Assembly: GCA_000165345.1 (NCBI GenBank)
Contig: CM000431.1
Coordinates: 576,001 to 640,000, forward strand
Length of the DNA: 64,000 bases
Reading direction: 5' to 3'
Positions within the stretch are counted from its first letter, which is position 1, and every line of letters starts with the position of its first letter. The notes below the pieces were generated by a model, which was not told the DNA's origin, did not search any database, and worked only from the letters and a program-made list of their open reading frames with translations. Shown here one piece after another: positions 20,751 to 64,000 of this stretch. Made by a program: the position numbers and the translations under genes.

Positions 20751-20967
20751 TTGCATAATTTTGACTGGAATATTACTTCATGTATTTGAGTTCATTAAGG
20801 TTGTGGGGCATGAAAGTTGGCTTGCTTCCCCTCATAATCTGATTAGCATTTATTTAATCAATAATTCAAGAAAAGTTGCTATTAAAGAAATAAATATGTC
20901 AGAGTAAGTCGACTAATAATATCTAAATTAATGATTTCATCTATTTAAACTTTCAATTAGCTGCTTT

Positions 20968-22389
20968 ATGCCAATCAGAGAAGTAAATGTGAACAGGCAA
21001 ACTATTTCAATTAAGGGCCGTATCATTCAGAAAAGTTCACTCCAGATTTTAAAGAGTGGGTTACGGTTTTTTCATCTTGACATAATAGACAAAGATAATG
21101 ATGTTATTAGAGTTAAGTTTTGGCGTCAAAAGGCAGAAGAGTATCATAATATTTTACAACATGGCTCAGTATATATTTTAAAATGCACAGGAAACGATGT
21201 TGTTGTTTCGAATACTAAGTTTAATGACACTTCAAATCCGTATGAAATTAACTTTTCTGATAGATGTTTTGTTAGAAAAGTTGAGAACGATGATGATTCA
21301 ATTGGCAAGGCACCAAAATATGTTTTTACAACTGTTAAGGATATTAGAGAAATACCAGTTCCTTCAATTGTTGATCTGATCGGAATAGTCAGACATTTCA
21401 GCCCTTCCACAAAAGTGATTTCAAGAAAGAACAATGATGAGGTTTCCAGAAGGACAATTTCAGTAGTAGATAAAACAGGCTTTCTTATAAACATCACATT
21501 ATGGGGAGAATTAGCGGAAGTTAGCGATGAAAAATTTTTGGGGAATCCAGTGGTTGCATTGAAGAGCATACAGATAAGGGAATATCAGGGTAGACAAGGA
21601 TCCACATTAAATGGGAGAAGCAATATGGAATTTTCCATAGATGATGGGAAAATGGAAGAGTTGAGAGACTGGTATGATAGTATTGGGAGTTCTATAAAGT
21701 TTGAATCTATAAGCAATATATCTTCGAATGAATCACCAAATAATTTCAGAGTTAACGATAAATTATACTCGGGAAGGACTCTCAAAGATATTAGGAATCG
21801 GATGGAAGATAACGAGTTTTCGTCAACTCCGTCGTTTCAGGTAATTGCAAGAATTTCGAAGATTGGCTCAATAAACGTAAATCAACAAGTTTCTGGAGAT
21901 AAAGGCGGCTCGTTGACATACGATGCATGTCCAATATGTAAAAAGAAAGTTCTCTTTTCCACTTCTTATTGTGAGAAGTGTGACGAATCTGTAGTTCCTG
22001 AGACTAAGTTCCTATTTCCTGTTACAATTGAAGACCATACATGTTCTTTAACCGTTCAATGTTTTCATGAAATTGGCTCAACATTTATTAAAGAATTGAG
22101 TGCTTCAGCCTGCAAAGAGATGGAACAAAATAACGACAAAAAGTTAAACTTCATCCTTAATCTACAATGTATGTGGAGACATTACAATCTCAAAATTCAA
22201 TTGAAGGCTGAAGAGTACAATAATCAGAAAAAAACTAGGGCAATAATTCAGTCAGCTGAGCCAATTGATCTTAATCAAATTTCCTATTTAATGCTAGAAT
22301 CGATCAGCCAATCAATATTAGGTAAAACTAACAAAAGATCTTTGTTTGAAGATAACATTAACACAAACAAAAGAATTTCGGTTGGCTAG
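20968..22389 (+). CDS. RPA1: Replication protein A large subunit, short type (no N-terminal 70N domain); OB-fold DNA-binding domains and C-terminal C4 zinc ribbon
   Basis: OB-fold wording VVDKTGFLINITLWGELAEV; zinc ribbon CPICKKKVLFSTSYCEKCDES. A 473-aa size matches the ~54 kDa short-type RPA1 described for Cryptosporidium. A possible 5' micro-exon is in the findings. Confidence 0.8.
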   Translation: MPIREVNVNRQTISIKGRIIQKSSLQILKSGLRFFHLDIIDKDNDVIRVKFWRQKAEEYHNILQHGSVYILKCTGNDVVVSNTKFNDTSNPYEINFSDRCFVRKVENDDDSIGKAPKYVFTTVKDIREIPVPSIVDLIGIVRHFSPSTKVISRKNNDEVSRRTISVVDKTGFLINITLWGELAEVSDEKFLGNPVVALKSIQIREYQGRQGSTLNGRSNMEFSIDDGKMEELRDWYDSIGSSIKFESISNISSNESPNNFRVNDKLYSGRTLKDIRNRMEDNEFSSTPSFQVIARISKIGSINVNQQVSGDKGGSLTYDACPICKKKVLFSTSYCEKCDESVVPETKFLFPVTIEDHTCSLTVQCFHEIGSTFIKELSASACKEMEQNNDKKLNFILNLQCMWRHYNLKIQLKAEEYNNQKKTRAIIQSAEPIDLNQISYLMLESISQSILGKTNKRSLFEDNINTNKRISVG

Positions 22390-22502
22390 TTAATTAAAAA
22401 ATATTCCATAGAATTCCAATAGGATAGCTATAATTACTTGAATGTTAGTTTAATTCCTACACAGCTGCTAGAAACTATCTTCTTGAATAAATTGTTGCGT
22501 GT

Positions 22503-22510
22503 TGGCGCGT
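22503..22510. promoter_or_regulatory. TTGGCGCG box about 90 nt upstream of the UBC13 start
   Basis: GC box in an AT-rich spacer. Confidence 0.3.
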
Positions 22511-22597
22511 ATTGTTGCTTTCAATTGGATTCATTATGTTACATTGAGATCAATATCTACTTTAGCACGCACGAAATAATTTAAAGTTTTGGGAATC

Positions 22598-23050
22598 ATG
22601 TCAATTTCAAAAAGAATACAAAAAGAAACTATGAATCTCGCAAATGATCCGTCGCCTGGAATAAATGCAGAACCTGATGAAGACAATTATAGATATTTCA
22701 AAATTATGATGATGGGCCCTGAGGGCACACCTTATGAAGGTGGAAGCTACAAGCTTGAACTTTTTTTGCCAGAGCATTACCCTATGGAACCCCCAAAAGT
22801 TAGGTTTCTAACAAAAATTTACCATCCAAATATTGACAAACTTGGAAGAATTTGTCTAGATATTTTGAAAGATAAATGGAGTCCAGCCTTGCAAATTAGA
22901 ACAGTATTGCTAAGTATACAAGCATTACTAAGCTCTCCAGAACCTAATGATCCTTTAGACACCGTAGTTGCAGATCACTTCAAAAATAATTTACTGGACG
23001 CAGAGTCAACGGCCAGAGAATGGAATAGACTTTATGCCAAAGGATCATAA
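22598..23050 (+). CDS. UBC13: Ubiquitin-conjugating enzyme E2 N (Ubc13)
   Basis: [44 protein letters not shown]...[36 protein letters not shown] is near-identical to human UBE2N. First ATG at 22598. Confidence 0.9.
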
Positions 23051-23323
23051 AGTTATTAACAAAAGGCAACACAAAAGGCAAATTAGCACAGATGCATTCA
23101 ACATCCACACTTTTCTAGTATTTTGGATCTCTAGAATTGAGTTCTGTTAGATTAAACCTTTTGATCAAACTTTTACAGACCAGATTTAGTAAATGCAACA
23201 CTAGAAAGTTAAATTTTTCAAAGTTGTCTGTTGGCCTAACATGAGTTCAACCTATATGGCCACGGGTATTTTGCAAATAGACACCGTGATAAATCTACAC
23301 TATTTTAATAGAACAAAATCAAT

Positions 23324-23962
23324 CTAAAGCTTTTTCTCTTCTCTTTTGATGAGTTCACGAAGTTCCCCCAATAATTGTGACTCTTTTAACATTCTTTGTT
23401 TCTCGTTTTGAAGAGCTATATTTCTTCTTTCTTCTACCGTATAAACTTGGTTCTCCTTTCTAATTCTTACAGCTGTCATTCTCTTGTGCATACTTCCGCT
23501 CATTACATATCCTACCTTCTCAAACGATTCTATTTGTTCTCCTGTTAATCCAACTTCACCTCTTCTTGGTATTCTTTTTCCTGCTTGGACGAATTGTGCC
23601 ATAGCTTCACCTTCGCCATAAAGAAGAGCTGCCCCATAATTTAGGTTTTGATTGATTGCTGTTTTTTTAATATCAGATGGACTTGGACCGAACAAATGAT
23701 CATCTTCAATCTTTTCTTCATTATCACAGCCAATGTCACTATTTGGACTCATTGAGGCAGTATCCTCGCTTAAAGATAAGTCTCTTTCAAAAGAAGGCCT
23801 TCTTTTATCTTTAAAATACCCAATAATGTTCTCTACGCTTGAAATATCCTTATCTTGCTCTCCATTTAAGGATACTTCTTCATTCCATAAGTTTTTGATT
23901 TTTTTTCTCATATCTCTTCTCCTTTTAGTGCGTTCATGTAACCATGAGATTAGCTTTTCCAT
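23324..23962 (-). CDS. NKAP-family protein (C-terminal DUF926/NKAP domain)
   Basis: C-terminus AQFVQAGKRIPRRGEVGLTGEQIESFEKVGYVMSGSMHKRMTAVRIRKENQVYTVEE matches the conserved NKAP C-terminal domain. The track start at 24007 is a GTG; the first ATG is at 23962. Confidence 0.65.
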   Translation of the reverse strand: MEKLISWLHERTKRRRDMRKKIKNLWNEEVSLNGEQDKDISSVENIIGYFKDKRRPSFERDLSLSEDTASMSPNSDIGCDNEEKIEDDHLFGPSPSDIKKTAINQNLNYGAALLYGEGEAMAQFVQAGKRIPRRGEVGLTGEQIESFEKVGYVMSGSMHKRMTAVRIRKENQVYTVEERRNIALQNEKQRMLKESQLLGELRELIKREEKKL

Positions 23963-24157: not shown

Positions 24158-24605
24158 ATGGAGAAAAGATTTGATCTGAGATACTGTGAAAAATTTCCAA
24201 ATGATTCACTATTAAACGGATTTGCTCCAAGAGATCTTGGTACAAAACCAAAATGCTTGCCACAGCAGATTCAAGAAACTGTAAGTTGGGAACAATAACT
24301 TTTCGAATATTGAATAATGCCATTTCTCTTAGGGGTTCATTCGGACATTAGAAAATGAGTTGAATATGCTTAGTGCTATACAAGGTTATCACTCAGCTGC
24401 AAAATCAAGAATGGAACAGGATTTAGTTTCGAAGGTTCAAAGACATCCAGGAATTCCAAGCTCTCACTTGAGCCTTGATCTACTAATGAATATGGATGAC
24501 AAGATCGAAATAAGCGATATTCTAGGCACGGAGAAACCTATCAATCCATTGGGCAAGAAGACAATCAGCGACACATTAGAGTCAATATTCAATATCAATA
24601 GTTAA
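24158..24605 (+). CDS. Hypothetical protein, 2 exons (24158..24280, 24333..24605) joined over a 52-nt GTAAGT...TTAG intron
   Basis: Track ORFs 24065..24298 and 24360..24605 become one frame when 24281-24332 is removed (donor ACT|GTAAGT, acceptor TCTCTTAG|GGG). The first ATG is at 24158, so the start is uncertain. No family recognised. Confidence 0.45.
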
Positions 24606-24708: not shown

Positions 24709-25155
24709 TTACTCTGCCTCTTCTCTCTGCTTCCTCAAACGTGCAATCGTCGATCTAGCAGTAACTGCTGCCGCAGTGCTTAGCTGCCATGCACCTCCTG
24801 CCAAGACCTTTCTGCAACCCTTGCATTCCCAAATTCCACAGGCAGTTCTCTTTGTCGCTGTTTTTCCACAGAATGGACAAACATATGTCTCACGTTGTAG
24901 GATCTCAGTCTTCTTCACTTGCTTACGTAGAGAAGCACCATATCTAGTGCCAAATTTACCAACAATACCAACCTACAATAAAAAGGAAATGAGAAAATAT
25001 GAAGGATCCATAATGATAGGGGTCGAGATCGAAGAGTAAGATATGGGTTCTGAATGTCGAACATTTAGTTCAATAGAGGGATACTAAGAAGTTTACTCAT
25101 AAGATCGTCATCCTCCTGCTCAAATGTAACTTACCTTCTTAGTTCTTCTACCCAT
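24709..25155 (-). CDS. RPL37A: 60S ribosomal protein L37a (eL43), 2 exons (25155..25135, 24972..24709), 162-nt intron
   Basis: Exon 1 ATG GGT AGA AGA ACT AAG AAG|GTAAGT (MGRRTKK). Exon 2 [38 protein letters not shown]...C4 zinc ribbon. Matches eL43 ([24 protein letters not shown]...). Confidence 0.85.
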
Positions 25156-27975: not shown

Positions 27976-28127
27976 CAAACTCACACATCTCACACTGCAT
28001 GTTCGATTATAATCATCAAAGAAATGGCATGAACTTACAAAACATTGTCTCAAAATATTGCAGTAACTTCCATTTTTGTTATAAATATTATATATCTAGA
28101 GTAGTATCATGATCATTTACTAGCAAA

Positions 28128-29783: not shown

Positions 29784-30349
29784 TGTTCAATTAACTTAAT
29801 TGACCATTAAAAATAGTCAAGCAATTATTTTTGAGCAAAATTTACCGTTGATCAAAATTTTATTTTGAATACAAAAATTATCTTATATATACTAGCTAAA
29901 TAATTTTGACTCATTAAGCCAGTTATAAAGAGAAATCAAATCTTGGTTTTCGGTATTTTGAATGGCGTTTTTATCATTAATTATATACTGGAGGAAGTTT
30001 TTTAATTGATAAGTAAGGCCTTTTATGGATTTAATAATTCTGATTTTTTTATCCATTATTTTCAATAGACTAGATATTCTTTCAATTTCATATGTAGCTA
30101 TTGCATTTCTCAGAGATAATTTCAAAACGTAAATCTTCAATGCGTTTATACCTGAAATATTGTCTAAAAATCAAAATAATTAGTGTATAAATTTATGGTA
30201 AAACGTACTGGGATTAGTTTCGGCCTCACAAAGGGATTTAATTGAAGAAATTAGTCCCTTCAGAATATTCCGTTTATAATGCATGCAGTTATCACGCATC
30301 TTATCTTATTCATCATAACTCAGATAAAAGGGAAACCATTGCGCGATGA

Positions 30350-30404: not shown

Positions 30405-32759
30405 TTAAAATTTACAGTATCTACTAGCAATATCCAATATTTTTCTGTAGACTAAATCAATGAAGCAACTTTCTAGATTCGAGGGAATACCATTGTTAGA
30501 GTATTCAATTAGTAGCTTTAAAATAAGAAAACCTAAGTCATTTGCGATCCCCTTAGCAACTGACGGTGTGAATCTCTGTTCGATGTAAGACGCAACGTCC
30601 TCGATTAGCCTATCAATCCTATCTGGGGAAACTTTAATTGGCACCTTCTTCGAGAATCTAGCCAATAGAGGCCCCAAGTGAAAGTTTAGCATATTAACAA
30701 CTTCTCTTAAGTTCCATTCGCCGCAGCCTGGAAGAGACAAATGAATGAAGAATCTGTAGGGCTACACAAGTTATTTCAGCTAAAAGACATCGGTGGATTT
30801 AAATAACAGCTCAGACAAATGCCTCGATTGTAATCAACACTAGCCATATGGCTAATGCAATTGATACAAGATAACTGGCAAACCCTTCGATAAGCCCGCT
30901 ATTATATCAAATTCATGCTCGTCATCTGATTTATCATCATTACCAGATAAATCCACGCAAGAAACAACATACCTGAAACATTCTGGTGCAAACAATATTT
31001 TTACTTGTAGATGTGCCAAAAATCATTATTTCTGAATGCATCCATTTGTTCGAACGAGATATAATATCAAAAAAAAACATCAATGAAAGAAGCGTATTGT
31101 TTTCTTCTAGCAAATACTGATCTATATCTTCAATGACCAATATATATTTACGTTTTCTTGTACAAACATCAATAATTTCTTTCAAGTATCTTTCAAAAAA
31201 TCCAATAGTTGCGTTGAAAATGTCTGCAGTATGTACGTATTTAATACTATAGTTTAAAGAGTCGGCAATTGAAGAGACGAGAAAGCTCTTACCTAAACGG
31301 TGATAAATATTTGTTAAATTAAATACAGGCATCAAATTTAAGGCTCAAATTTTCAACATGAAGAATTAGTGACCTATCATATAGTTATTTTCTCATTTGC
31401 CTGACTAAAATAAAACTTACCACAACCCTTGTCACCGAAAACAATAATACCAGACGCTTCATTAAAAACTATAGGAAGTCGAAAGTTCGATATTTCTGAA
31501 TATGAAATACAGGGGAGCAAAAGATTCTTTATTTTGTGAATTACTTGGCCAAAGCCAGTCATTTGAATTAATCCATTTTTGCATGAACCGCTCTCTCTAT
31601 CACAGCTAGAATCACAAATTGTACAATTTGAATTACTGACTGATTTATTCAATCTCCTGATAACGAAGTTAAAATAATATAAAAATACATTAAAAAAGTC
31701 AGGTATTACACCATTGAGGACTATTGCAACAAATCTACCGCACGAAACAGTGTATGGAATATCATGCAGTTCTTCATTTAAAACGTCAGCGATGCGAACC
31801 AGGTCAATCTCATTTACAATGAATTTCAATTCTTCATTGGATAAAGCCATAATATATTTGGAGTGAATGCTAGAAATTTTTTCCATCAGACAATTCAGAG
31901 AAATTTCATTTATATCATATCTTTTATAAATTAAGAACCTTAATAAGGAAATTTTATCGATCTGGAGCGAGAAGTTTCTGAAATCTATTTCAAAAAATTC
32001 TCCATATCCATACTTAAATATATATCTTATATCCATAGTCTTTGACTGTAAAATCTTATTCGATGTGCCATAGTCATCTGGGTCTATATCCGAAATAAAA
32101 AATGAAACAATTGGAATATTTTTGTTATCCCAAATACGGATAAATTTAGAGATCAAATTAAGAATAACTATTTGTTTTGAAACATCACCATAGTAGTTAC
32201 TATTTGGTCCTGTGTAATATTTATTTGGATTTGCACTTCTAAAACAAACCAATATGGCAGGAGGGGAAAAAGGTCCACTGCATAATGAGTCTCTTAAGCG
32301 CACCCCTACTTTTGATATAGACGTTAATTTATTATTCAAATAATAAATCTTCTTGTCAAAACAATCAGTAGTTCTCGTATCAATAAAATATTCATCAATT
32401 GATATATTGAAAGTCACGGGATTAAAGGATTTTGAGTTTTCAAAGTAACAAATCTTTGAGAAGCTAGATAACAATTCTCTTGCAAAGTATCTCTTTCCAG
32501 ATCCACTATTACCTATTAGAATCAAAACTTTCGGAAGTCTGTCAATGAAAAGGTTAATACCCACTTCAGTCGTGTCAATATCACAAAAATTAGTCTCATA
32601 TCTTTTTAGCAACAATAGATAGAATATCGACCCAATTTTTTCAAAGAAATCATCAAGCAATGGGCCGCCTACAAATGATTCATCCAGTTCCAATCTCCAT
32701 TTAAAAAGAAAAAAGGAGATCCATCTCAGAGGAATCTCGTCGTACTTGTCCCAATACAT
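30405..32759 (-). CDS. Divergent ORC1/Cdc6-like AAA+ ATPase with two tandem P-loop modules; at least 3 exons (32759..31421, 31292..30973, 30761..30405), 3' end uncertain
   Basis: Walker A GNSGSGKR in module 1. In module 2 Walker A is GDKGCG|KS, split by a 128-nt GTAAGT..TTTAG intron, and Walker B is YILVIEDID. ORC/Cdc6-type wording LLSLMFFFDIISRSNKWMHSEIMIFGTSTSKN and CTRMFQ|PYRFFIHL is split by a 211-nt GTATGT..TAG intron (compare ORC1 LGLTRMCFQPYTY). Intron positions are supported by restored motif continuity. Further 3' exons are possible (see ORF 29892..30140). Confidence 0.5.
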
Positions 32760-32979: not shown

Positions 32980-33373
32980 TTAATAATGACTTTTATTATT
33001 GAAAAACAGCACTGTTAAATATCTATTTAATGTTAACCTCTCAAATTAGATTTAAATTAACATACCTTCCAGAAACTTGAAAACCAGAAAGCTGTTTCAG
33101 CGCACTTTTTGCATCCTCAATCTCATCATATACTACAAATGCTGTGCCCTTTGTATCTTCACCTACACCTCTATTTCAGACTCTTCATGAACAAGAAATT
33201 TTGTTAGCCTTACCTTCTTATTTGTCTAATTGTTCCATGTCTCCCAAAAATGTCGTAGAGATCGGTAGAAGAGATATCATATGGAAGTTGCCTAAGGTAA
33301 ATAATAGATGAATTTAAAACAATGCATTTTACATTTCGTACCTTACATATAGAATTCGGCTATTATTAGACAT
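32980..33373 (-). CDS. SF3B6: Splicing factor 3B subunit 6 (SF3b14a/p14) RRM protein, 4 exons (33373..33342, 33291..33214, 33170..33066, 33022..32980); introns 50, 43, 43 nt
   Basis: Absent from the ORF track. Spliced product [85 protein letters not shown] aligns along its length with human SF3B6 ([76 protein letters not shown]). Donors AG|GTACGA, AG|GTAAGG, AG|GTATGT; acceptors ..CCTTAG, ..GAAATAG, ..TAAATAG. Confidence 0.8.
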
Positions 33374-33547
33374 TGAGTAGTTTAAACTAAACAAAATCGG
33401 ATAATGCCTTAGTAATATATTCTTAATGTTATAAAAGTTACCTTAAATAATACTATTATATTGCCATAGCTTAAAATTAATGTCAATAATAGTAATAGTT
33501 CAAATATAGGCGGTGTGTAAGTAGCGCTTTCCTACACACAATTTTAC

Positions 33548-36636: not shown

Positions 36637-38923
36637 TTATAGAAAAGTTAATGATAGTGCTAGTATTAAGGGTGATAGTAATCCTATCAGCAAATGTTTG
36701 AACATTGTTGATTTCAAGCACCTATCATCCCTAAATAAATGAAATAAATTTTCCGTAAAAATTTCATAAAAATTCTTCCCGTTGTAATTACACATATTTT
36801 TTTCTATTTTAATTTCCACCCAACTGATCCACTGCAAAATAGGGATACTTTTAATTATTTTATACTGTTTTGAAACCTGGTCAAAACCATCCAATGATAA
36901 CCTATTACAGAAATTATTTATCTCTGCTGAAAAATATTGTTTATTACGACAAAATATCTCGTTCCCTAAAACGGAGTTCCAAATAGATGCAGAATTTTTC
37001 GCTTTGCTAATATCGAAACCAAGATTATAAATAAAATGTTTTGAATTTAAAATATTTGCAATATCTATCAAAAAATATCTTGTCTTCATTGCTATTTTTG
37101 ATAAAATACATGCATAGTAGTCTCCTTTCTTTTTATAACAACAAAAATTTAATAAAATCACCAGGAAAATTGTCCAGATTATAAATTTTCGAAAAGCTGA
37201 AGAATCCATGATAAAAATAATAAATAGAATGATGGGAATAATAAAAACCAAAATGCTGAAATTTTTTGTTGAAAGAATAATTGAGAAGGCAATTAGAAAT
37301 ATTTTATTCATTATCTTAATAGAATTAATAATATCTTTGTATGCGCTACTATTCTTTTGAACATTAAATAGTTTAATGAATATATTAATGCTTGAAGTAA
37401 CAAAAAATGTGATGAAGAAGACCACAAAAGTTAATGCAATAAACAAGGGCCACAAGTTTGTATATTCGGATTCAGATAAATTGGAGCAATCAAATAAAGA
37501 ATTACCAATTTTATCAAATAAATGCACAACCAAGAGTATTATTGGAGCAGTTATTGAAATCAAACAAGCTATTAGAATAATTCCAATAAGTAGAATACTG
37601 CTTTCTTTTGATATTTGTGCTAATATTCCGATCGAAAATGATATTAACATCAGAATAATTGGGACTAAATAAATACCAAAGTTTAGTGTTGAAAAATATG
37701 ATGTAAAATAGTATTTGTTACTTGATTGATGCAATTCATCATGAAGGTTACTTTGAATCTTAACAATACCTTCTAAAAATTTATAAATCTCAAATTGTTG
37801 AATTGGAAATATTGAAATGAACTCGTTCGCATCATTGCTGTCCTTAAAATGATCCCAAATTTCATTATTCGCTATCGAAAATTCATCAACCAAAGAAAGT
37901 GTAAATGAATTGATATTATTTTGCAAAAATCGACTGTGAGGTTTATACGATCCTTTATTAAACGCTTGCCTGAAGCAATTATTTGGCAAATTAATGGTTT
38001 TTAAAAGCTTACCTTGCAATTGAATCCCAAAAATTCCTTGTAATTATAGATATAGGAGGATAGGTGAAGCTTGATTCAACTTCCCTAATAACAGAATTGG
38101 GGAAATCTTGATTAGTTTGTAGTCCATCCATAGATTCTACTAAAAGTTAGAAATTAACATACATGATTGAATCAACTTACCGATGTCAATAAAGACTCTT
38201 GTTGGAGTTAACGATAATATTTCAATACAAATTGCAGTTCGTATTCTACCATTGTATTTTAGCAGTCTTTGGTCAATTGCCAGATCCTTCAGAAATGAGT
38301 TAATTCCCATTGAATTTGGAATGTTCGAATCCGTAAAAAGTAGAATTATGTCTTTCGAAGTCCAGTAAATCTTTTCAAAATGTTTGGAAAGAGGAATAAT
38401 TAAGCCTGCTGCACTACCCAGTTCATCTTTTCCATCTTTATATTTCCATGGAAAGGAAATAGAAATTATTATTACTTCTGAAGAATCGCCTCTTTTTGAT
38501 GGAACTACAGCTGCAATATACCCGGAACTTAAGAGGTATAAATCTTTATATCTGTATGAAGAGAAGTTTTTATTTTTTATTATATCAATGTCTCCAGAAT
38601 CATCGCATTCAATGCAGTGAGTGTCCCTTGCGATAGAATTAATTATGCTTTGCGCAACCAATTCAGCGTTACCCGATTTTTGAGAAGTTAGTATCTCTTG
38701 GGTTACTTTCTTATATTCAAGTACGATGCTGCGGTCAACTGTAGCCTTATTTACTCCTTCAGAAAACCCACTTTCTTTTACTTGCGTAACTTTATCAAAG
38801 CCTGGAAGAGATAAAAGAAATAAAACCCCAATAAGCAACAGAGTTAATCTATAAAGATAAGAATGTAGTTGAATTTGAAAGCTTACGCACTTACCTGATT
38901 AATCCAACCGTAGTAAAGCTCAT
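36637..38923 (-). CDS. GPAA1: GPI transamidase component GAA1/GPAA1, 4 exons (38923..38895, 38848..38181, 38139..38013, 37969..36637); introns 46, 41, 43 nt
   Basis: GLIIPLSKHFEKIYWTSKDIILLFTDSN matches human [53 protein letters not shown] matches [23 protein letters not shown]. Multi-TM C-terminus. The only in-frame ATG is in a 29-nt first exon (MSFTTVGLI|R) joined by GTAAGT...CTTTATAG. Two internal GTAAGT/GTAAGC introns restore the frame between track ORFs 38140..38838 and 36637..38019. Confidence 0.75.
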
Positions 38924-43409: not shown

Positions 43410-43912
43410 ATGAAAAAGACTCAAATATCAAACGGTAAGTAATTCAACTATCACTATATGTTATCATTCTGTCTCAGTTGCAAGTGGGATTTTGTCTAGA
43501 TCGGTTTTGAAAGGAGACCCTGTTTTTTCGCAAGAAGACTTGTCTAGCAGAAAAATAATTAAAAATGAAAGCAAAAAGCACAGTAAAAGAAACGTAAGTT
43601 ATCTTCATGATAAAAACTTCTAATAACTTATATAAATAGGCTAATGAAAATATTTTGAACACAATTTTTTTAAAACAAACCGCAAAGAATCAAAGGGAGA
43701 AGAGTTTGAAGCAGTTAGCGACGAAAGGAGTCGTAAAGTTCTTTAATATGATAGTAAACTATCAGGAAAATTCAAACATCAAAGCAAGTAAAGGCACTAG
43801 TAGTCCGAAAAATGCAGGACATTGCACAGAAACTAGGAAGGTAAAAAACGTGGAGTCCAACATTAAACCAAATAGATTCGGAACAATTGTTGGAATGCAT
43901 TCAGATAGGTAA
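43410..43912 (+). CDS. RRP15: RRP15-like rRNA-processing protein, 3 exons (43410..43434, 43478..43593, 43640..43912); introns 43 and 46 nt
   Basis: Only its last exon is in the ORF track (43655..43912). LKQLATKGVVKFFNMIVNYQENS matches human RRP15 [23 protein letters not shown]. Donors ACG|GTAAGT and AAC|GTAAGT; acceptors CTGTCTCAG| and TATAAATAG|. Start codon is 67 nt from the divergent RABGGTB start. Confidence 0.7.
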
Positions 43913-49449: not shown

Positions 49450-50519
49450 CTAAATCTTTTTTTTTAGTGCTCTTTCTCGGATATATTTGGTCTGTGATAT
49501 TCTTATTTTATTCCAAATTGGTCGAGGGATCATATTTGCCTGAATACAAAGTATCAAAAAGTAGTTACACTCTTTATTTTACTTACTATTAATAGTTGTA
49601 TTCGATGACCAAAATAAGGAACAACCGTCGAGTAAACCGATGGAGTTTTTTTAAGCATCTTTATAGATTCAACAGAAAACCTAAGAAACCAATCAAGATG
49701 CTATAAAAATAATAGCTTACTACTTACCTTTTTGTTGAAATTGTGAACAAGGTTTCTCTTTTGGCTTTTGATAGTTTAGTGGTAACTAGTAAAGGAGTAT
49801 GGCATTGGATTGTGATATTCTCGGACTCACATTCCGCTCGTAAACTTCTACATAGAGATTCGGCGACACTTTTTGTAGCGGCATACGCGGAATAGAGAGG
49901 GTCAGTCTGAAGCTGTGACGACCCACTTCCTATACACAAAATGGCTCCCCGATCCCTAAGCATATGCATTATTTATTTAGTAAAGTTTGAAAGCACTACT
50001 CACCTCTTTTTCATGTAGCTGTAAACAATGCGAGTCATCATTAATACAGACCTAACATTCACTTCTATTAATTCATTAATTAGATCCAAACTAGTCTCTT
50101 CAAAATATTGTGCATACGGATATGAGATGCCAACATTATTTATTAGAATCCCAACATCATCAATTGAATTCAAATATCCGCAAAAATTTGAGTAACAAGT
50201 CGGGTCAGTAAAATCCATTAAATAATACCTTATTTCTTGATTTGAATCTGGTTTTTTCAAGGATAGCAACTAGGGCAAGAATTAGTATTTTTGAAGCATA
50301 TTTAAAGCTTACCTCATTTACAACATTTTGCAGCTTTTCTCTATTTCTTCCTATTAAAATTAAGTTTAAATCTTCTTTAAACAATTCCTTTGCCATTGCT
50401 TTTCCAATTCCGTCGCTTGCGCCAGTTATAATTGCCCAACTTCCAAATGAAGTAAGTTTTTTCTCAGGTCTGTTGAGCAAGAGAAATAATTTGTTTATGG
50501 CCATAGAAAGATAATTCAT
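49450..50519 (-). CDS. Very-long-chain 3-ketoacyl-CoA reductase (HSD17B12/IFA38-type SDR of the ER fatty-acid elongase), 5 exons (50519..50313, 50269..50004, 49955..49728, 49680..49587, 49539..49450); introns 43, 48, 47, 47 nt
   Basis: Three track ORFs (50205..50540, 50000..50269, 49724..49969) plus two further exons assemble into a 294-aa protein colinear with human HSD17B12. Matches: WAIITGASDGIGKAMAKEL / WAVVTGSTDGIGKSYAEEL; VGILINNVGISYPY / IGILVNNVGMSYEY; GAILCIGSGSS...YSAYAATKS (YxxxK); HTPLLVTTKLSKAKRETL; C-terminal PIWNKIRISQTKYIREKALKK / PSWIYLKIVMNMNKSTRAHYLKK. Donors GAG|GTAAGC, AG|GTGAGT, AG|GTAAGT, ATA|GTAAGT. Confidence 0.8.
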
Positions 50520-50668
50520 TATTAATTTAATAAAATTCAAGCAAATAATTCCTGCTATTTTACTAATATTAACTCATTGCGGCAGGAATTTTACTTAAGC
50601 ATAAATTCATTTGATCTTTTTTTTCTTAATCTGGAAGATGTTAACATTTATTTTCATATACTTTAAAC

Positions 50669-51034
50669 TTACTTTAGATCTTCTAATTCTGTCTCTTGAA
50701 CCTTAACAAAAAGGCAAGTGCAACATTTATACAAGATTATCAAAGTCATCCCCAATATAACCAACGACAACAAAACAAGACATAAATAAATCCACCATGG
50801 CCATGCTGATGCACAAATATTTGACATGGTATTTTGTCGGCAAGATGTAATTGAATCCACTTTTGATGTACAGAAAAATTCTGAACTACTCGAAACTTTA
50901 CAAGGCGAACAAAACTTAGAAAGCTGGCATTCGCCACAAGACTTAATTGATCTGCAAATATTAAATATATCGACTTCGGTCAATTCATTGCGACCGAAGG
51001 CAGAAGTTCTATTCACTAAGATGCTGCTACTCAT
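50669..51034 (-). CDS. Hypothetical small Cys-rich protein with a C-terminal transmembrane helix
   Basis: CGECQLSKFCSPCKVSS...; TM WPWWIYLCLVLLSLVILGMTLIILY; short Cys-rich tail. The track ORF extends to 51100 from a TTG; the first ATG is at 51034. No family recognised. Confidence 0.4.
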   Translation of the reverse strand: MSSSILVNRTSAFGRNELTEVDIFNICRSIKSCGECQLSKFCSPCKVSSSSEFFCTSKVDSITSCRQNTMSNICASAWPWWIYLCLVLLSLVILGMTLIILYKCCTCLFVKVQETELEDLK

Positions 51035-51055
51035 GTTTATTTTAAAAAAATTTAT

Positions 51056-52279: not shown

Positions 52280-52330
52280 TTTTCGTTTAAATAAAAAAAA
52301 ACTAATACAACTAACTTACTCGTCTTATCA

Positions 52331-52557: not shown

Positions 52558-55186
52558 TCAATTTTTTTTTTTGCGAATAGGCCTTTTTTGATGCTCTTTG
52601 TGTTGTTTGGATAAATTGTCAAAGTCATTATACTCAAATAACTCTGATATCTCCTTGGGAATTTCATCAATATTAGCGTTATTTTTGGAATCGGGATCAG
52701 CCGTTTCTTTTATCGTGTTGTCTTCAAAATTGTCCACAATATCTACTCCTTTATCCAAACATTGAAACTTGTGACTGTGAAATTTTCTCTTTTCGCATGT
52801 AAAATAAGATTTTAAGTCATGATCAGCGGTTAAACCTGAATGTGTATTGGATGATAAAATGTTTGAACCATTTTTTCTGCAGTTATTTAAAGATTGAGTA
52901 GATTTAGATAATAATTTAAATGATTCGAGCATTCTAGAAAAAACTCTGCATTTCGAGCCTCTAGATGCCTTAAGGTTCAAATTACAAATTACAACAATAT
53001 AGTTCTCAAGTAAATATTTTAAAATTAACTGAATATTATTTCTGCATATAAAGTCAAGCATTTCAATTACCACGCTTTCCAATATTGAACCCTCTCCTCT
53101 ATTTCTTGGCACCTTTAATTGGTCCATTATTAAGAAAATGTACTTAAAAATATCATGTTTAGTGAATAGACGGTAATAAAAGTCGTCTCGAGTTCCCAGG
53201 CAAGTTCTCAAGAATTTAATAACTGAAATAGAAAAAATTTTATGAAATGGTCGAGTAGCGATACGTAGCAATTTTCTTGGCAATTGATTTTGAAGGATTT
53301 TGTATTTAATTCTGTAGTTGTGTTCTTGTACGCAAGTTGCGAGAATATCGCAAAATAATACTCTTGCAGAATACAATGGATTGAATTCAGTAAAAATTAA
53401 AGAGTCGTTGAGCAAGCTATCTATTAATCTGTCTAGAATGCCCATATCATAAAATAAAGAGAGTGAATCATCTCTTTCTGGAACATCCATAGTCTTAGGG
53501 TCCAATATTCGTTTAAAAATTGCACAAATTTGCATTTGGATGCTCTCACTCCTTGAATTAATAAAAATTTCGCATAGAGTTCCCCATAGTGAATGAAATA
53601 AGTTAGATTTGTCGGATAAATTTTCCATTTCTTTAATGCTTTCTTTTGGACTATTTTGAAGAGCATCATCAGCATATAAAATATCGACATTCGAGCCATA
53701 TATATTAGTTTCTTTATGAACTTTAAAATATTGAGAAGTTGATTCATGAATAGCGTGTCTCAAAAGACCAGGATTAATTTCGCAAACCATTGAATATATT
53801 TCAACTGCTAAATCAATTGGCCTTATATTAGAATAATTTATGAATGATAAATCATTAGTATTTGAAAAATTTTTATGATCATCATTTGAAGTGGATAATT
53901 CTAACATCTGCCTAGCTCCAATACAATTTTCATTTAAATATCCACAAAACTCACATAAAATATTGTTAACTTTAAGATTTATGAATATTTGATGTCGTTC
54001 ATAAATCGAAAGCATTGGGTTTTGTTTTAAAACCGTCAATACTGCATGAATAAATTTTGCAACAAGAAAGTTTTTCTGAATGTTTTCCTTGAGATATTTC
54101 CAAATATCGCTTGTAGTTACGATCATACTAATTATCGATGAAAAATTATTATTAATTATTGTTGCTATTCTTTGAAGGCTTTGCTCATCAAGATGCCTAG
54201 GCATAACAACATCTCTTAAATACATTAACCTATAGTTAAGATGAATTGTTCGAACTTCTGGTAAAGGAACAACACTGTGAAATTTAACATTTTCTAAAAA
54301 CTTCTTGTGAGAAAATTTTATTTTATAATTTTCCAATGTCTCGTCATATTCGCAAGCTTTAAAAAATTTTAAATAATATTCATCGCTTAATAAGATTTCA
54401 AATACTTCATTGAAGCTACTGTAGAAAACTATTATTCTACGAAGTACTTGGAATATTTTATGTAGCCCAATCAAATCAGAATTTTGTTCAAATTCTTCCA
54501 TTAGATTAAAAAGTGAATCAAAAAATTCTCTACTTAATAGATCCATAACAATATTTTCAGAATTAATATTGGAATCAAGTTCTAGATCATCAATTATTTG
54601 ATCTATATTACTTGAAGTTGGCCTCTCTAATAGTGAATAGCCCGTACTTTCTTCTGGTAATTCTGCTTCTAATAGGTCAACGCACAGATGCGGAACTAAA
54701 GAAGTGATCATGTTCCATATTGAATTACAACTTTCTGAATGCTGGAAACTTAATGCCCTGTATAGATCTGAATTTAGTCCATCCTGCCAAGTAATAATAC
54801 TTTCTTTTTGATGGCAATACTCTCGATTCAAGTCAATAGGAGTGTTTACTAATTTAACTATATTATAGTTTTCTATTTCTAGTAAATCCTCAATATTTTT
54901 TCTTTGTGAGTGCAGTTCTTTCTCAAAATTTGGATCTTCGTCACTTAAGACCTAAAAAAGTAAATAAAAAAACGGTTATTTATATTAAGCTTACCAAAAT
55001 ATTAAACTTATCATTATCCTTGTTTAATTTTAAAAAGCCAGTTCCGCAGTCAATCCAGTTACCATTTTCAGGATTTACTTCGTAAAGTTTAACCCTACGG
55101 TATTCCAATGGCCATGCATTAAAACAATAAACTTTATGCTCTGGGATTGAAATGTTTTTTATAGACTCCAGCTCTGAAAAAGCCAT
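52558..55186 (-). CDS. Protein phosphatase 4 regulatory subunit 3 (SMEK/Psy2/falafel), 2 exons (55186..54995, 54951..52558); 43-nt intron
   Basis: EVH1-like N-terminus RRVKLYEVNPENGNWIDCGTGFL (compare SMEK [22 protein letters not shown]) in track ORF 54980..55186, joined by TTG|GTAAGC...CTTTTTTAG|GTC to the main ORF. SMEK core similarity: IITWQDGLNSDLYRALSFQ; armadillo-like remainder. Confidence 0.75.
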
Positions 55187-58815: not shown

Positions 58816-59277
58816 AAAAAAAAAGAGAAAAAAAAAAAAAGAAAAAACATAGCTTTACTATTAATTTATTTTTCTAAAAAATGTCTTGGTGTTTATTAGT
58901 CAATCCCAATTATTTAATGAACTAATACATTGGAAATTATTTAAAATATAGAACACTAGTGATTAAGTTAAATTAAAAATTAAAGGAAATCACTAAATCT
59001 CATATCTAACTTAAATATTGATTTAATTTTGATATATTATTTATTCACCTGAAATTTTAAATTTGTAAAACACGTAATTAAAAAAATAGTGGCTACCGCT
59101 AATGCATTGTGACGTGCAATTAATAATTAACACGTAAATAAGATTTTTTACCCCTTTCCTTCATCGCTATTAATTTGAAAAGAATGTGTAATTGTGAATA
59201 ATATGTAAGTTTTGTGATAGTTTTGTGGTTTGATATACTCTTATTTAAAACAAGTAATGAGAACTTAAATAAAAAAA

Positions 59278-60640
59278 ATGAGTGTAAATAAAAATATTTT
59301 ATTCCCATGTATGAAAAAGGCGGAATGCAACATCTTTTGTCCAAATGAAGTTTTGAGAGAAAATATTAACTCTTATGGATCTATAGAAATTATGGATAAA
59401 ATATCAATTTTTCACATTCCTAGTCCACAAAATAACCAAAAGCCAAAAAAAATATTCGTTACTAGAAAAGAATGCTGTAAACTACTTGATATTTCAATAG
59501 ATGAATATTTATTCATTAATCAAAATTTGTGTGGATTGAAACCAATAATTAAATGCACTGGAAAGATCATTATTAAAATGTCCGTTACAAGTGTTATCAT
59601 TGCATGCAAAGATGTTTGGATTCTTAATCCGGAAAATAGCAAAACATTAGAGATCATTGAAAGGCTATTAGAGTGCACAGGATATAATATTTCGGTAGAC
59701 AACAACACTCCCAGTACAAAAGTTTCATTTGCAGATGGTATCAGCAAAGAATTCATTTCTCCTTTGGTAGAAAATTATAATTATAATTCTAGTTTAGAAT
59801 GTACTCGCAATAATTTTGAAGAAACAGAACATGCACTTTCGAGCTCAATATTAAGTACATTTACTGATATAAATACTTTGGATAATTCACATGAGTATAA
59901 AAGACAGGAATCAATCGAATGCTCTATTTCAAGTGCTACCCAAGAAAAGAATATTGATATCTACAATTACAGGTTTATTCCCACAATCAACAAAGATTAT
60001 TACTCTCATTCATTTGCTGCTGTATGCATAGAGATAGGATTAGAAGTACTAAATAAAGAATTAATTGAAAGTATTAATTGCACAAAAAATGAAGTACTAA
60101 AAAGTTGTAATATATTAATAAAGAGCAGTAAATGGTACAAATACCCTTGGAGATTTACCTTTAGTGACTTTACAAATAAAAAAATGATATCTAAGTCAGT
60201 AAACGTAAGTTTTTTCTCGTAGATTAACAATATATTGATTCCATATTTAGACGTTAGAAATTACCACTTCTATATTAATAGATTGCTTAAAGGAAATTTT
60301 GGAAGAGATTAAACAAATTAGACAAAAAGATGGAGACGAATTAGTTATTTGTATTGAAGAATGGGAAGACATTTTACACCGTTACATCCCAGCAATATAC
60401 TTGGCATCCAAAGAATTAACAGAAGTCAAATCCTCAATTACATTCAGTGACGAATTGTCAAAGGTATATCTCGACTTCCAGAGAAACGAATACATGTACA
60501 CAAACTTAAAGATCTCGCTACTTACATTATCGTGTAGCATCACCTCAGTAATTACAGGTAAGAGTGATTTTGCAAATATTAATAAAAAGTTAATTAGCCT
60601 CACAAGGAATATTCGGAATGAATCTTCTCAGTGGAATTGA
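59278..60640 (+). CDS. Hypothetical protein (~438 aa), 2 exons (59278..60204, 60251..60640); 46-nt intron
   Basis: Track ORFs 59278..60222 and 60299..60640 are joined in frame by AAC|GTAAGT...CCATATTTAG|ACG. No family recognised. Confidence 0.5.
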
Positions 60641-60890
60641 ACACGACCCTATAGCTTGGTACGTCGTCACATTCTTAGTTGTCACCCCAATAATATTATG
60701 GGGAGTGAGTTGTTGGTTTACAGGAGCGATGTGTAAACGCGAAATAAACTACATAAGCCACAACCAAAAGGGAAGATAAAAAAAAAAATTAGAATACACT
60801 AGAATAATAGTGCTTGGGTGAATATCAAACTATTTGTGGTCATTCAATATTAATACAGACTCCCACAAAAATACTACGGTAGAATAGATT

Positions 60891-61352: not shown

Positions 61353-61456
61353 CTTTCAAAAATATCGAATAAAACTGAAGTTTCAATAACTGGAGACGAA
61401 AGAAAAATCACGTCTTAGCGCAAAATGTCTAATTTAAATGCTAAACCCGCATTTTG

Positions 61457-61465
61457 TTGGCGCCA
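61457..61465. promoter_or_regulatory. E2F-like GC box TTGGCGCCA in the divergent RPS18/GYF spacer
   Basis: Palindromic GGCGCC core in an otherwise >75% AT spacer. Matches the TGGCGCCA-type motif reported upstream of many Cryptosporidium genes. Confidence 0.4.
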
Positions 61466-61683
61466 TCCTCAAAATTATAAATTATGAACATGCTTAAGTG
61501 GCATGTACTTTACTTGGATGAAGAAAAACATTATATTGTTAAAATTCGGCTTATACTTATTTGGGGTACTATGTTAGCCTACCTTCTTATTAACTTGCTT
61601 TAAATCTTAAGTTATTTGATTCCAATAAAATTTTTAGTCGCGTCATTGTTATAAAATAAATAAATCTATAAATTATTATTAAA

Positions 61684-63213
61684 ATGGATCAAGAATTAGG
61701 GTTATCAAGTGGTACAAATACACATCATATTGAGCTATCAATTTATTTAGGATCCATAAGTGTTACAATTAGTGATGATAATCAAGTTAATTGTAGGTTT
61801 TTCTCACTTACAGTTGATATTGAACCATCATTTAATTTAGAAAACAGTTTACAGGAAATTAATACACAAACACAGAACATTTTTGATTATAATGATTCAG
61901 AGATAGATGATTGTGAGAAAACTCAGTTTTGTACTAGTTGGTATGAAATAACAGATGCTCCATTACATGCAACCTATGGTATATTTTCTAGTGAAATTAA
62001 TGGCATTATTAAAGAGTGCAATATAAACCAAGATATATATTTAAATCTGAAGTTGCCTATATGGGTTTCAAATATGGCAAAACAATTTTATAATGCATAC
62101 AACCAAATTGGCTTTGAAAACTTTCTATTAACAGTTCTTCAGTTAAGAATCACAATCTGGGCTACAAAAAATTCAACTATTGAATCAGCTGAAATATTTG
62201 AAGTTGGTGAAACAATTATCAAAGTTTCTGAGGATCACATATTATCAAAAAATTCATTTTATTTTATACATAGAATTCCTGAGCATGACGCTTTTGCTAT
62301 TAAGGAATATTCTGGAAACGACAAAGAATACACAATTGGTATTCTTAAATGTTTTTTTAACTCCAGGCCCGTAATAATAAAAAACATTAATAATAATTTA
62401 ATAGATATTTGTAAAAATAACGCAACACCTTGCGATTTTTCAAAAGAAAATTTTGAATTAATTCAGAAATTGCGAATTAGTCAAGAAAATGTTCGAATGC
62501 AGCTTCATGATATTGTTCCTTTGAAATGGGAATATTTAGATGATAATAATGTAATCAGAGGGCCATATAATAGCATTGTTATGATGAGTTGGATAGTAAA
62601 AGGGTACTTTGGAGAAAATAGCAAATTACGTTTATTTGATTTTGGTCAAGAGTGCAAAATTGAAAGTACTACTCCAAGATGTTTACAAAAGTTTCAACCT
62701 TTGAGCAATTACCTATCTTTGATTAAATCAGATGTGTCTAGAATATTTAGATGCTCACCTAATGATTTAATAAACATTGGCTTAATAGTTAAAGAGCCTA
62801 ATCATGAAAACATGAATTTACATACTGTGGAAATGACTAATAAATCAAGTGCACGAGAAGAAAATGCAAGATTTATTCACAAATCCCAGGAAAGCAAAAG
62901 AATTGAAATTGAAAACGCAGTAAATATGCTGAAAACCCAATTTTCACATATTGAAAAAGAATTTCAAAATAAGTTTAGAAGAAAAGTGCAAAATAAAAGT
63001 ATGGATAACAATTTTTCCTTGGAAGCAACAAATATAAGTAAGGACGAGTTTATAAAATTTGCAACAAAAAATGTATTTAGACAAAAAAATAATGCTTTAT
63101 TCAAAAAATGGTGCGCAGAATATGGGCCTGAATTAGTGTTAGAAGCATGCGCAATTAGGATTCAAACCGCATTTCGCAAATACATTAAAAGAAGATATTT
63201 AAATGTAAAATGA
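61684..63213 (+). CDS. GYF-domain protein with a C-terminal IQ motif
   Basis: GYF signature WEYLDDNNVIRGPYNSIVMMSWIVKGYFGEN; IQ-like IRIQTAFRKYIKRR near the C-terminus. Confidence 0.55.
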   Translation: MDQELGLSSGTNTHHIELSIYLGSISVTISDDNQVNCRFFSLTVDIEPSFNLENSLQEINTQTQNIFDYNDSEIDDCEKTQFCTSWYEITDAPLHATYGIFSSEINGIIKECNINQDIYLNLKLPIWVSNMAKQFYNAYNQIGFENFLLTVLQLRITIWATKNSTIESAEIFEVGETIIKVSEDHILSKNSFYFIHRIPEHDAFAIKEYSGNDKEYTIGILKCFFNSRPVIIKNINNNLIDICKNNATPCDFSKENFELIQKLRISQENVRMQLHDIVPLKWEYLDDNNVIRGPYNSIVMMSWIVKGYFGENSKLRLFDFGQECKIESTTPRCLQKFQPLSNYLSLIKSDVSRIFRCSPNDLINIGLIVKEPNHENMNLHTVEMTNKSSAREENARFIHKSQESKRIEIENAVNMLKTQFSHIEKEFQNKFRRKVQNKSMDNNFSLEATNISKDEFIKFATKNVFRQKNNALFKKWCAEYGPELVLEACAIRIQTAFRKYIKRRYLNVK

Positions 63214-63249
63214 GAATTACATCATATATTTAAAAAATTGTGCCTAATA

Positions 63250-64000
63250 ATGAATACTATTCGACCGAATTATGGATTTATCAACTCAAGCTTTTCAAAG
63301 ACATGTATACAAAGCGTATTTAGAACAAGTAGGGGGATATGTAAAATGAACTTTAAACACTATATTAAGTTGTATAGAATTAACAACCCCACGGGATTTT
63401 GGCTTCTCTTTATTCCTACTTTTGGGAGCTTGACCCTTGCATCTAACTCATTGCTACCAAAAGCGAACATTACCGCATTGTTTGCACTTGGGTCAGTAGC
63501 TTCTAGGAGCGCAGGATGCGTAATAAATGATTTGGCAGATCGCCAATTTGATTCAAAGGTTGTTTTCCATACTTTCTTTATTCATTATCATCTGCTTTCA
63601 GGTTGAGAGAACAAAGAATAGACCGCTTGCTAACGGAGAAATGGCTTTTACCAAAGGTAAATTACACAAGTTTGGTTTTACTATTTTCATTCTAGTTTAG
63701 CGCTAATTGCTCTCATTGGGTCTTCTACAACTTCAGCGATTGTTTTGTCTAGACTTAACAGATACACAATTTATTTAGGTATTCCTTCTGTATTCTTAAT
63801 AGCAGCATACCCTTTTATGAAAAGGATAACGCATTACCCCCAGCTATTTCTAGGTTTTACATTTAATTGGGGCGTATTGCTTGCTTGGACCTCTATATAT
63901 GGTTGTATTAACCCATATCGGAGCTCGTGGTTATGTCCGATTTCATATTACCTTTCTTCTGTTTGTTGGAGCGTACATTATGATACAATCTATGCGCATC
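63250..64000 (+). CDS. COQ2: 4-hydroxybenzoate polyprenyltransferase (COQ2, UbiA family), partial; exons 63250..63558, 63602..63656, 63701..>64000; introns 43 and 44 nt
   Basis: NPTGFWLLFIPTFGS...SRSAGCVINDLADRQFDSK|VERTKNRPLANGEMAFTK|ALIALIG...YPFMKRITHYPQLFLGFTFNWGVLLAW...YDTIYAH matches UbiA/COQ2 motifs (NDxxDxxxD, RPLxxG, YDTIYAHQD). Donors AAG|GTTGTT and G|GTAAAT; acceptors CTGCTTTCAG| and CTAGTTTAG|. Continues beyond the window. First ATG at 63250; the track starts at a TTG at 63238. Confidence 0.75.

Follow-up and report, generated by a model that had tools for sequence, protein, structure and literature searches.

Why do so many genes fall to pieces when one stretch of the Cryptosporidium parvum genome is read as uninterrupted open reading frames (ORFs)? 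The stretch, hereafter the window, comprises 64,000 nucleotides (nt) of contig CM000431.1 (assembly GCA_000165345.1, positions 576,001 to 640,000, forward strand), and a preliminary description made from its letters had attributed the fragmentation to a coherent class of very small introns spread between positions 20904 and 63700. The analysis reported here leads to the same answer, since the interruptions are almost certainly ordinary U2-type GT-AG spliceosomal introns of C. parvum, most of them close to a minimum size, with a mode of 43 nt. The public IOWA-ATCC annotation contains all 26 introns that were rebuilt, so that the finding, although right, is already known.

The identity of the locus is straightforward. 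The window matches chromosome 3 of C. parvum IOWA-ATCC at 100% identity (CP044420.1, about 579,046-643,045), and the window coordinates used throughout are converted into CP044420.1 positions by adding 579,045. Independent assemblies carry the same sequence at 99.96-100% identity, and the products of four long intronless ORFs are exact C. parvum protein entries. The gene set covered comprises the 29 genes located between 18185 and 64435, downstream of a giant ORF at 1-18135. Intron-bearing genes were flagged from the public record by comparing the range of each gene with three times its number of amino acids (aa) plus one. The range exceeds 3 x (aa + 1) in 13 genes, which therefore contain introns.

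The intron set and the evidence for splicing

Introns were solved as GT..AG segments yielding an open frame of the required length, by enumeration followed by a scored dynamic programme; solutions from the solver with a free end were over-fitted with spurious introns and were discarded. Of the 29 genes, 13 were found in this way to hold a total of 26 GT-AG introns, 24 of them within the window, where the preliminary description had counted at least 20. The first (20904-20960) and the last in-window intron (63657-63700) delimit exactly the span it had given. Of the in-window introns, 21 are short (42-57 nt, mode 43) and three are longer, the individual lengths being 42, 43 (seven introns), 44 (two), 45, 46 (three), 47 (two), 48, 49, 50, 52, 57, 128, 162 and 211 nt. 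The last three are precisely the longer introns announced beforehand. As for the short class, proposed at 41-57 nt, it is real, although its lower bound of 41 nt holds only for two introns of COQ2 placed beyond the window end.

Every intron of the set (26 of 26) starts with GT and ends with AG, as corresponds to the U2 type, and the U12-type donor [AG]TATCCTT was found in none of them. GTAAGT is the donor of 13 introns, GTAAGC of three, GTGAGT and GTATGT of two each, and GTACGA, GTACGT, GTAAGG, GTAAGA, GTAAAT and GTTGTT of one each. Position +5 is a G in 24 donors and position +3 an A or a G in 25, the exceptions being GTTGTT and GTAAAT, both from COQ2. The acceptor is TAG in 19 introns, CAG in five and AAG in two, with a T-rich 3' end and YAG in 24 of the 26, and phases 0, 1 and 2 are represented by ten, six and ten introns, respectively. 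The tabulation of lengths and splice-site consensus that had been suggested as a check thus gives a mode of 43 nt, GTAAGT-like donors and YAG acceptors, and it contains all five donors listed in the preliminary description (GTAAGT, GTAAGC, GTGAGT, GTATGT and GTACGA), its TAG and CAG acceptors and the frequent phases 1 and 2.

The 13 spliced products are equal, residue for residue, to proteins deposited for IOWA-ATCC (QOY42571-QOY42597 and the eL43 entry), which bears out the existence of a coherent class of short spliceosomal introns. According to its authors, the introns of that annotation are 100% supported by RNA sequencing (RNA-seq) (Baptista et al. 2022, PMC8744675). The junctions are crossed by single, nearly full-length Pfam or Protein Data Bank (PDB) matches in eL43, SF3B6, the reductase, UbiA, Gaa1, AAA and Rrp15p, and the proteins with which colinearity had been claimed (HSD17B12-type reductase, SF3B6, RRP15, COQ2, GPAA1, PP4R3 and eL43) received the same names from Pfam, PDB or homologue matches. 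Retention of any of the 26 introns introduces a premature stop, located inside the intron in 22 cases and within 62 nt after it in the other four; the five introns whose length is a multiple of three, an apparent shortage in a set of only 26, carry each an in-frame stop.

The GTAAGT hexamer is not in excess overall (30 sites, 23 ± 5 in shuffles). Thirteen of the 30 sites are found at intron 5' ends. Eight GTAAGT sites bridge two interrupted open frames, each 30 codons or longer; 390 decoy motif pairs gave 1.2 such sites on average and never more than 7. A scan of both strands combining a position weight matrix with the open-frame requirement recovered 21 of the 24 in-window introns and gave no convincing additional one, the top non-annotated matches reusing known sites or lying in antisense frames.

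The syntenic loci of C. ubiquitum, C. muris, C. andersoni, C. felis, C. xiaoi and C. canis were used for comparison, and positions and phases agree in them. The C. ubiquitum loci cover 19 of the introns; 15 have the same position and phase by automated comparison and the other four were located in nucleotide alignments. The five introns that could be resolved in the C. muris and C. andersoni loci are all conserved, with lengths of 65-229 nt. Identity with C. ubiquitum amounts to 71.5% in introns and 81.3% in the flanking exons, and while the latter are gap-free, the length difference is not a multiple of three in 13 of 15 intron pairs. Despite a sequence divergence of about 30%, orthologous introns of the two species remain within 5 nt of each other in length, those of the short class measuring a similar 44-56 nt in C. 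ubiquitum. Orthologous introns measure 65-128 nt in the gastric species C. muris and C. andersoni but 44-57 nt in C. parvum and C. ubiquitum, a consistent difference that suggests a further shortening of introns in the intestinal clade.

A contig from a related species (L011, Logan SRR31831731, positions 1-1153) shares 79% identity with the window and about 87% with C. ubiquitum, and in it the introns of eL43 and UMP1 are both absent exactly at the predicted boundaries. The two genes lie on opposite strands of the contig, which also reaches about 330 nt 5' of the eL43 start codon. The contig is probably a merged transcript assembly.

Several points speak against the assignment of these interruptions as introns. 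Sequence-only support is thin for the introns of a hypothetical 133-aa membrane protein (hyp133) and RPA1 and for the first introns of GAA1 and COQ2, for which the deposited annotation is the main argument, joined in hyp133 and RPA1 by conservation in C. ubiquitum. The comparison between species covered the genes other than GAA1 and COQ2. Splicing itself rests on the statement published with the annotation and on contig L011, from another species, which was the sole match when spliced C. parvum cDNA contigs were sought via protein clusters; none was found for C. parvum. Finally, the motif YTRAY is present 9-26 nt upstream of the 3' splice site in only 13 of the 26 introns, a modest excess over the share of about 23% that we estimate for chance, and does not define a branch site.

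A different origin of the interruptions would be that assembly or sequencing errors, or the decay of pseudogenes, had broken the frames and that GT..AG segments had been picked afterwards to mend them. In fact, a length-constrained search always finds some GT..AG combination: it admits 43 solutions for eL43, and for COQ2 a wrong intron of 43 nt came out first. Nevertheless, this explanation is effectively refuted and its probability is close to nil, since errors would not recur in independent assemblies that agree almost to the last nucleotide, nor would mended frames yield donors so strongly non-random at +5, positions, phases and splice signals kept in species 20-50% diverged, segments that accept indels of lengths other than multiples of three while exons do not, and the exact products deposited from an RNA-seq-curated annotation. 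A subtler possibility accepts the introns, and holds that some of the short ones are spliced inefficiently or conditionally, retention acting as a regulated switch. The stop produced by retention of each of the 26, the weak branch-point and polypyrimidine signals, the two AAG acceptors and the GTTGTT donor would agree with it, and only three alternatively spliced genes are reported genome-wide in C. parvum (PMC8744675), the phenomenon being therefore little explored. However, premature stops are expected by chance in spacers of 26% GC, and the published annotation treats the introns as constitutive; we regard conditional splicing as improbable.

Constitutive spliceosomal introns being preferred, we propose the following model. 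Each intron is delimited by a strong donor complementary to U1 (GTAAGT-like, with G at +5 in 24 of 26) and by a T-rich 3' end, with YAG in all but two, and it would be recognized by intron definition across a unit of about 45 nt, a weakly conserved YTRAY located 9-26 nt upstream of the 3' splice site being the putative branch site. Its removal restores one open frame colinear with conserved families, whereas retention always leads to a premature stop. The introns, whose positions and phases recur in other Cryptosporidium species, are ancient within the genus and evolve as non-coding spacers of constrained length.

Introns gene by gene

The first intron of the span belongs to the gene of the RPA1 large subunit, on the plus strand, and follows an exon 1 of 8 nt (20904-20960, 57 nt, phase 2, GTAAGT..TAG). 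The spliced product of 478 aa is QOY42571.1, and an intron of the same position and phase measures 56 nt in C. ubiquitum and 128 nt in C. muris and C. andersoni. On the same strand, the proteasome maturation factor UMP1 (QOY42574.1) is interrupted at 24281-24332 (52 nt, phase 0, GTAAGT..TAG) by an intron kept in three other species, with 56 nt in C. ubiquitum, 84 nt in C. andersoni and 88 nt in C. muris. Ribosomal protein eL43 (L37a), on the minus strand, carries one of the three long introns (24973-25134, 162 nt, phase 0, GTAAGT..TAG), placed after codon 7. Its 94-aa product is deposited, with a Pfam L37ae match to 1-84 of 85 that continues unbroken over the junction. The intron occupies the same position in seven Cryptosporidium species and is always long (115-174 nt); comparison of the seven revealed neither a conserved internal block nor a signal of small nucleolar RNA (snoRNA).

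The next genes are also transcribed from the minus strand. A hypothetical protein of 120 aa (QOY42579.1) has an intron at 30164-30208 (45 nt, phase 1, GTACGT..TAG), kept with 44 nt in C. ubiquitum and with 65-71 nt in C. muris and C. andersoni. The gene of an AAA-ATPase of 671 aa (QOY42580.1) contains the two other long introns, at 31293-31420 (128 nt, phase 1, GTAAGT..TAG) and 30762-30972 (211 nt, phase 0, GTATGT..TAG), and both junctions fall inside a single Pfam AAA match. The counterpart of the former in C. ubiquitum has 129 nt and 80% identity, and the latter, whose position and phase are kept, has 216 nt in C. ubiquitum, 229 nt in C. andersoni and 227 nt in C. muris. SF3B6/p14 is interrupted by introns at 33292-33341 (50 nt, GTACGA..TAG), 33171-33213 (43 nt, GTAAGG..TAG) and 33023-33065 (43 nt, GTATGT..TAG), all in phase 2. 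The three have counterparts in C. ubiquitum, the second with 45 nt and the same phase and the third with 44 nt in the nucleotide alignment. In the 85-aa product (QOY42581.1), the RRM_1 match (1-69 of 70) is colinear over the three junctions, and residues 5-81 align, again over all three, with the solved structure of human p14 (PDB 3lqv).

GAA1, the subunit of the glycosylphosphatidylinositol (GPI) transamidase, is encoded on the minus strand by a gene with an exon 1 of 29 nt followed by intron 1 at 38849-38894 (46 nt, phase 2, GTAAGT..TAG). Two additional introns are located at 38137-38180 (44 nt, phase 1, GTAAGT..TAG), inside the single Pfam Gaa1 match (7-418 of 497), and at 37970-38012 (43 nt, phase 2, GTAAGC..CAG), supported by the product and by the same Pfam match; the protein has 717 aa (QOY42583.1). 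RRP15 (137 aa, QOY42587.1), on the plus strand, is interrupted at 43435-43477 (43 nt, phase 1, GTAAGT..CAG; 44 nt and the same phase in C. ubiquitum) and, inside the Pfam Rrp15p match, at 43594-43639 (46 nt, phase 0, GTAAGT..TAG; 48 nt in C. ubiquitum).

The gene with most in-window introns encodes, on the minus strand, a 3-ketoacyl-coenzyme A (CoA) reductase of the HSD17B12/KCR type. Its introns are placed at 50270-50312 (43 nt, phase 0, GTAAGC..TAG), 49956-50003 (48 nt, phase 2, GTGAGT..TAG), 49681-49727 (47 nt, phase 2, GTAAGT..TAG) and 49540-49586 (47 nt, phase 0, GTAAGT..CAG), with lengths of 44, 48, 48 and 45 nt in C. ubiquitum, and a single adh_short match (2-193 of 195) runs across junctions that include the one at 50270-50312. 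The neighbouring gene of hyp133 (QOY42590.1), on the same strand, has the shortest in-window intron (50631-50672, 42 nt, phase 2, GTAAGT..CAG), which alters only the last 12 residues and whose donor and acceptor are kept in C. ubiquitum (42 nt). Also on the minus strand, PP4R3 (861 aa, QOY42592.1) contains an intron at 54952-54994 (43 nt, phase 0, GTAAGC..TAG) that has 47 nt and the same phase in C. ubiquitum.

The last two genes lie on the plus strand and provide the non-canonical sites of the set. A CorA-like Mg2+ transporter with the GMN motif (468 aa, QOY42594.1) has introns at 60205-60250 (46 nt, phase 0, GTAAGT..TAG; 49 nt in C. ubiquitum) and at 60558-60606 (49 nt, phase 1, GTAAGA..AAG), the non-YAG acceptor of the latter being found also in C. 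ubiquitum (47 nt). In COQ2/UbiA the first intron has an unusual donor, without G at +5 (63559-63601, 43 nt, phase 0, GTTGTT..CAG), and is followed by 63657-63700 (44 nt, phase 1, GTAAAT..TAG) and, beyond the window end, by two introns of 41 nt at 64053-64093 and 64182-64222. With the intron at 63559-63601 the motif NDxxDxxxD is restored, the product is QOY42597.1 and the UbiA match (1-245 of 250) extends in one stretch over all four junctions. A rival first intron at 63496-63538, likewise of 43 nt and preferred by splice score, was rejected because it destroys NDxxDxxxD and gives a product that is not deposited.

GTAAGT hexamers in the sense orientation are also found just 5' of the start codons of UTP15 (28033-28038, minus strand), a cGMP phosphodiesterase (33517-33522, plus strand), an M24 peptidase (52314-52319, minus strand) and the Mg2+ transporter (59205-59210, plus strand). 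They could mark introns of the 5' untranslated regions; neither an acceptor nor an upstream coding exon could be assigned to any of the four.

snoRNA-like elements in the long AAA-ATPase introns

Identity with C. ubiquitum reaches 79-80% in the long AAA-ATPase introns, which are thereby level with their flanking exons, unlike the short introns. A scan of the whole window at the Rfam gathering thresholds gave no match. In E-value mode, sub-threshold matches to C/D-box snoRNAs, covering the full length of the models, appeared in each of the two introns and on the strand of the host gene.

The element inside the 211-nt intron, a candidate SNORD15/U15-like C/D-box snoRNA, occupies 30793-30956 on the minus strand and is closed by an outer stem of 9 base pairs (bp). 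Its C box, ATGATGA (30934-30940), its D box, CTGA (30811-30814), and two guide blocks are invariant in seven Cryptosporidium species, gastric ones included. The flanks form duplexes of -8.5 to -14.6 kcal/mol in the five intestinal species, values matched by at most 3% of shuffles. The sequence of these stems differs from species to species while their complementarity is kept, C. muris and C. andersoni having only 4-5 bp. The guides pair contiguously with CAAAUGCCUCG (11 Watson-Crick bp) and CUCGUCAUCU (10 Watson-Crick bp), at adjacent sites of eukaryotic large-subunit (LSU) ribosomal RNA (rRNA), represented here by an environmental rDNA unit (L042), verified with Rfam and containing CAAAUGCCUCGUCAUC..., and not by the rRNA of Cryptosporidium itself. 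Under the +5 rule the predicted targets are an A (the third A) and the G located 7 nt downstream in the LSU rRNA segment CCAAAUGCCUCGUC, which we take to correspond to the sites of yeast snR13 and snR75.

The resemblance of this element to SNORD15 (U15, RF00067) and to TtnuCD10 of Tetrahymena (RF02287) resides in the C and D boxes, in the antisense blocks GAUGACGAG and GAGGCAUUUGU and in the placement, within an intron and in the orientation of the host gene. It differs from both in an unrelated central region and in a D' box AUGA instead of CUGA. The Rfam scores were 34.2 bits for TtnuCD10 (gathering 85) and 22 bits for SNORD15 (gathering 75); as they lie below gathering, membership of the U15 family by the curated threshold is not established. 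As a candidate U15-like snoRNA, the element would work in the manner of U15, whose guides it shares.

The second element, at 31326-31403 on the minus strand inside the 128-nt intron, is C/D-box snoRNA-like, with a terminal stem of 7 bp and a 16-nt block, AACTATATGATAGGTC, invariant in five species. Its D box is UUGA, and its C box is degenerate, being canonical only in C. xiaoi. It was found by nhmmer in four other species. Its Rfam matches, below threshold but spanning the whole models, scored 25.5 bits (snoR16) and 22.7 bits (snoZ101). Pairing of the stem reaches 97%, and with five sequences its two compensatory pairs do not attain significance. No convincing rRNA target was found in the LSU rRNA of L042.

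Could the conserved blocks be something other than snoRNAs, such as elements controlling splicing or expression, or the remains of lost exons? Rfam scores well short of the gathering thresholds (22-34 bits where 75-85 are required, and 25 where 45 are) would favour it, and so would the features of the element in the 128-nt intron, namely its boxes, the lack of an rRNA target in L042 and a stem covariation that does not reach significance. In the 211-nt intron, on the contrary, canonical C and D boxes invariant in seven species, guide blocks identical to the consensus of SNORD15 and TtnuCD10, contiguous pairing of 10-11 bp with neighbouring sites of LSU rRNA, correctly placed in the +5 register, and flanking stems that vary between species yet remain complementary speak against it. 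An origin of the blocks unrelated to snoRNAs seems unlikely.

The snoRNA-like elements plausibly account for the extra length of their host introns: in two of the three long introns it would be due to conserved C/D-box cargo, predicted to be released from the excised intron. In C. parvum, 23 intronic non-coding RNAs have been described, four of them snoRNAs, and such RNAs have been suggested to preserve introns (Li et al. 2022, PMC9465071). If not yet catalogued, the two elements would extend the very short list of Cryptosporidium snoRNAs. A broader scheme is conceivable, though we hold it with little confidence, in which intron length is bimodal, selection holding a floor of about 43 nt and snoRNAs keeping the long introns long, with the AAA-ATPase pair possibly standing unclassified among the ten snoRNAs reported for C. 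parvum.

Published introns, gene models and other features of the window

Current figures for the C. parvum genome are 1364-1370 introns, with about a quarter of the genes bearing them (PMC13125899, PMC9465071); the 1364 introns of coding sequences have a mean of 87 nt, the shortest having 31 nt (PMC13125899 Table S1). The genes covered here are denser in introns than the genome: 13 of 29 bear introns, as opposed to about 25% genome-wide (binomial P of about 0.016), and the mean is 0.9 introns per gene as opposed to 0.35. In the 2004 set of 213 introns, 84% start with GTAAGT, the median is 61 nt and the branch-point motif was described as 'not clear' (Irimia & Roy 2008, PMC2483917). Reannotation raised the proportion of intron-bearing genes from 4.3% to 10.8%, the ORF-based annotation of 2004 having missed most of them (Isaza et al. 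2015, PMC4637869). The introns of this locus resemble the published ones in being short, AT-rich, dominated by GTAAGT and devoid of a clear branch-point consensus; they differ from the 2004 set in their median (45.5 against 61 nt) and in the share of GTAAGT donors (50% against 84%), which agrees with the shortest and least canonical introns having escaped that earlier annotation.

Minimal introns are found elsewhere, with about 25 nt in Paramecium and 18-21 nt in the Bigelowiella nucleomorph. As in Cryptosporidium, those introns show a narrow length peak near a floor, and their retention always leads to a premature stop. The peak of Cryptosporidium, at about 43 nt, is larger, and its introns keep a canonical, extended U1-type donor.

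With regard to the gene models, the products obtained here are identical to those of the IOWA-ATCC annotation of CP044420.1, from which they differ only in the reductase. QOY42589.1, labelled 'partial', has 281 aa and no stop codon, equals the first 281 aa of our model and falls 13 codons short. With the same four introns and read-through to the stop at 49450-49452 (minus strand) the protein reaches 294 aa, ending in ...RERALKKKI. The alignment with very-long-chain 3-oxoacyl-CoA reductases is colinear along 93-100% of the protein, and so is that of its C-terminus with Plasmodium, gregarine and plant KCR and with the 296-aa model of C. canis.

The preliminary description had warned that an ORF-based view would break these genes into pieces, and ORF-only gene calls on the same DNA do yield exactly the predicted fragments. 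Such calls (Logan) and the 'partial' models of the 2004 Iowa II annotation reduce COQ2 to 118 aa, the reductase to 104, 72 and 81 aa, GAA1 to 460 and 232 aa and UMP1 to 79-90 aa. Other records of C. parvum or C. hominis hold the 118-aa fragment of COQ2, a reductase of 234 aa and an Mg2+ transporter of 438 aa, and in GCA_031892065.1 the AAA-ATPase gene is split into 130 and 460 aa. A C. ubiquitum model fuses SF3B6 with the AAA-ATPase (731 aa; L012, 1691-4790), as does a C. hominis record (721 aa), and another C. ubiquitum model of 398 aa (L015, 11243-12838) joins hyp133 to the reductase, as judged by position and length. The finding is of practical more than conceptual value: several public Cryptosporidium annotations still miss or mis-join genes of this locus, and a reading of the sequence by itself can recover the complete, correct intron set of a compact parasite genome. 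Correct models matter for drug-target work, COQ2, the GPI transamidase and the reductase of the elongase pathway being metabolic enzymes.

Upstream of the genes covered, the giant ORF at 1-18135 (plus strand) is part of a fatty-acid-synthase-like gene of 8243 aa. It contains a near-identical internal repeat about 6.5 kb apart, seen as duplicated antisense ORFs (6882-7220 and 13383-13706, 7407-7946 and 13893-14432, 8240-8539 and 14726-15025), and presumably reflecting repeated synthase modules. An intergenic AAT-rich simple repeat at 20659-20904 (plus strand), just 5' of the RPA1 start, reads as a poly-asparagine ORF.

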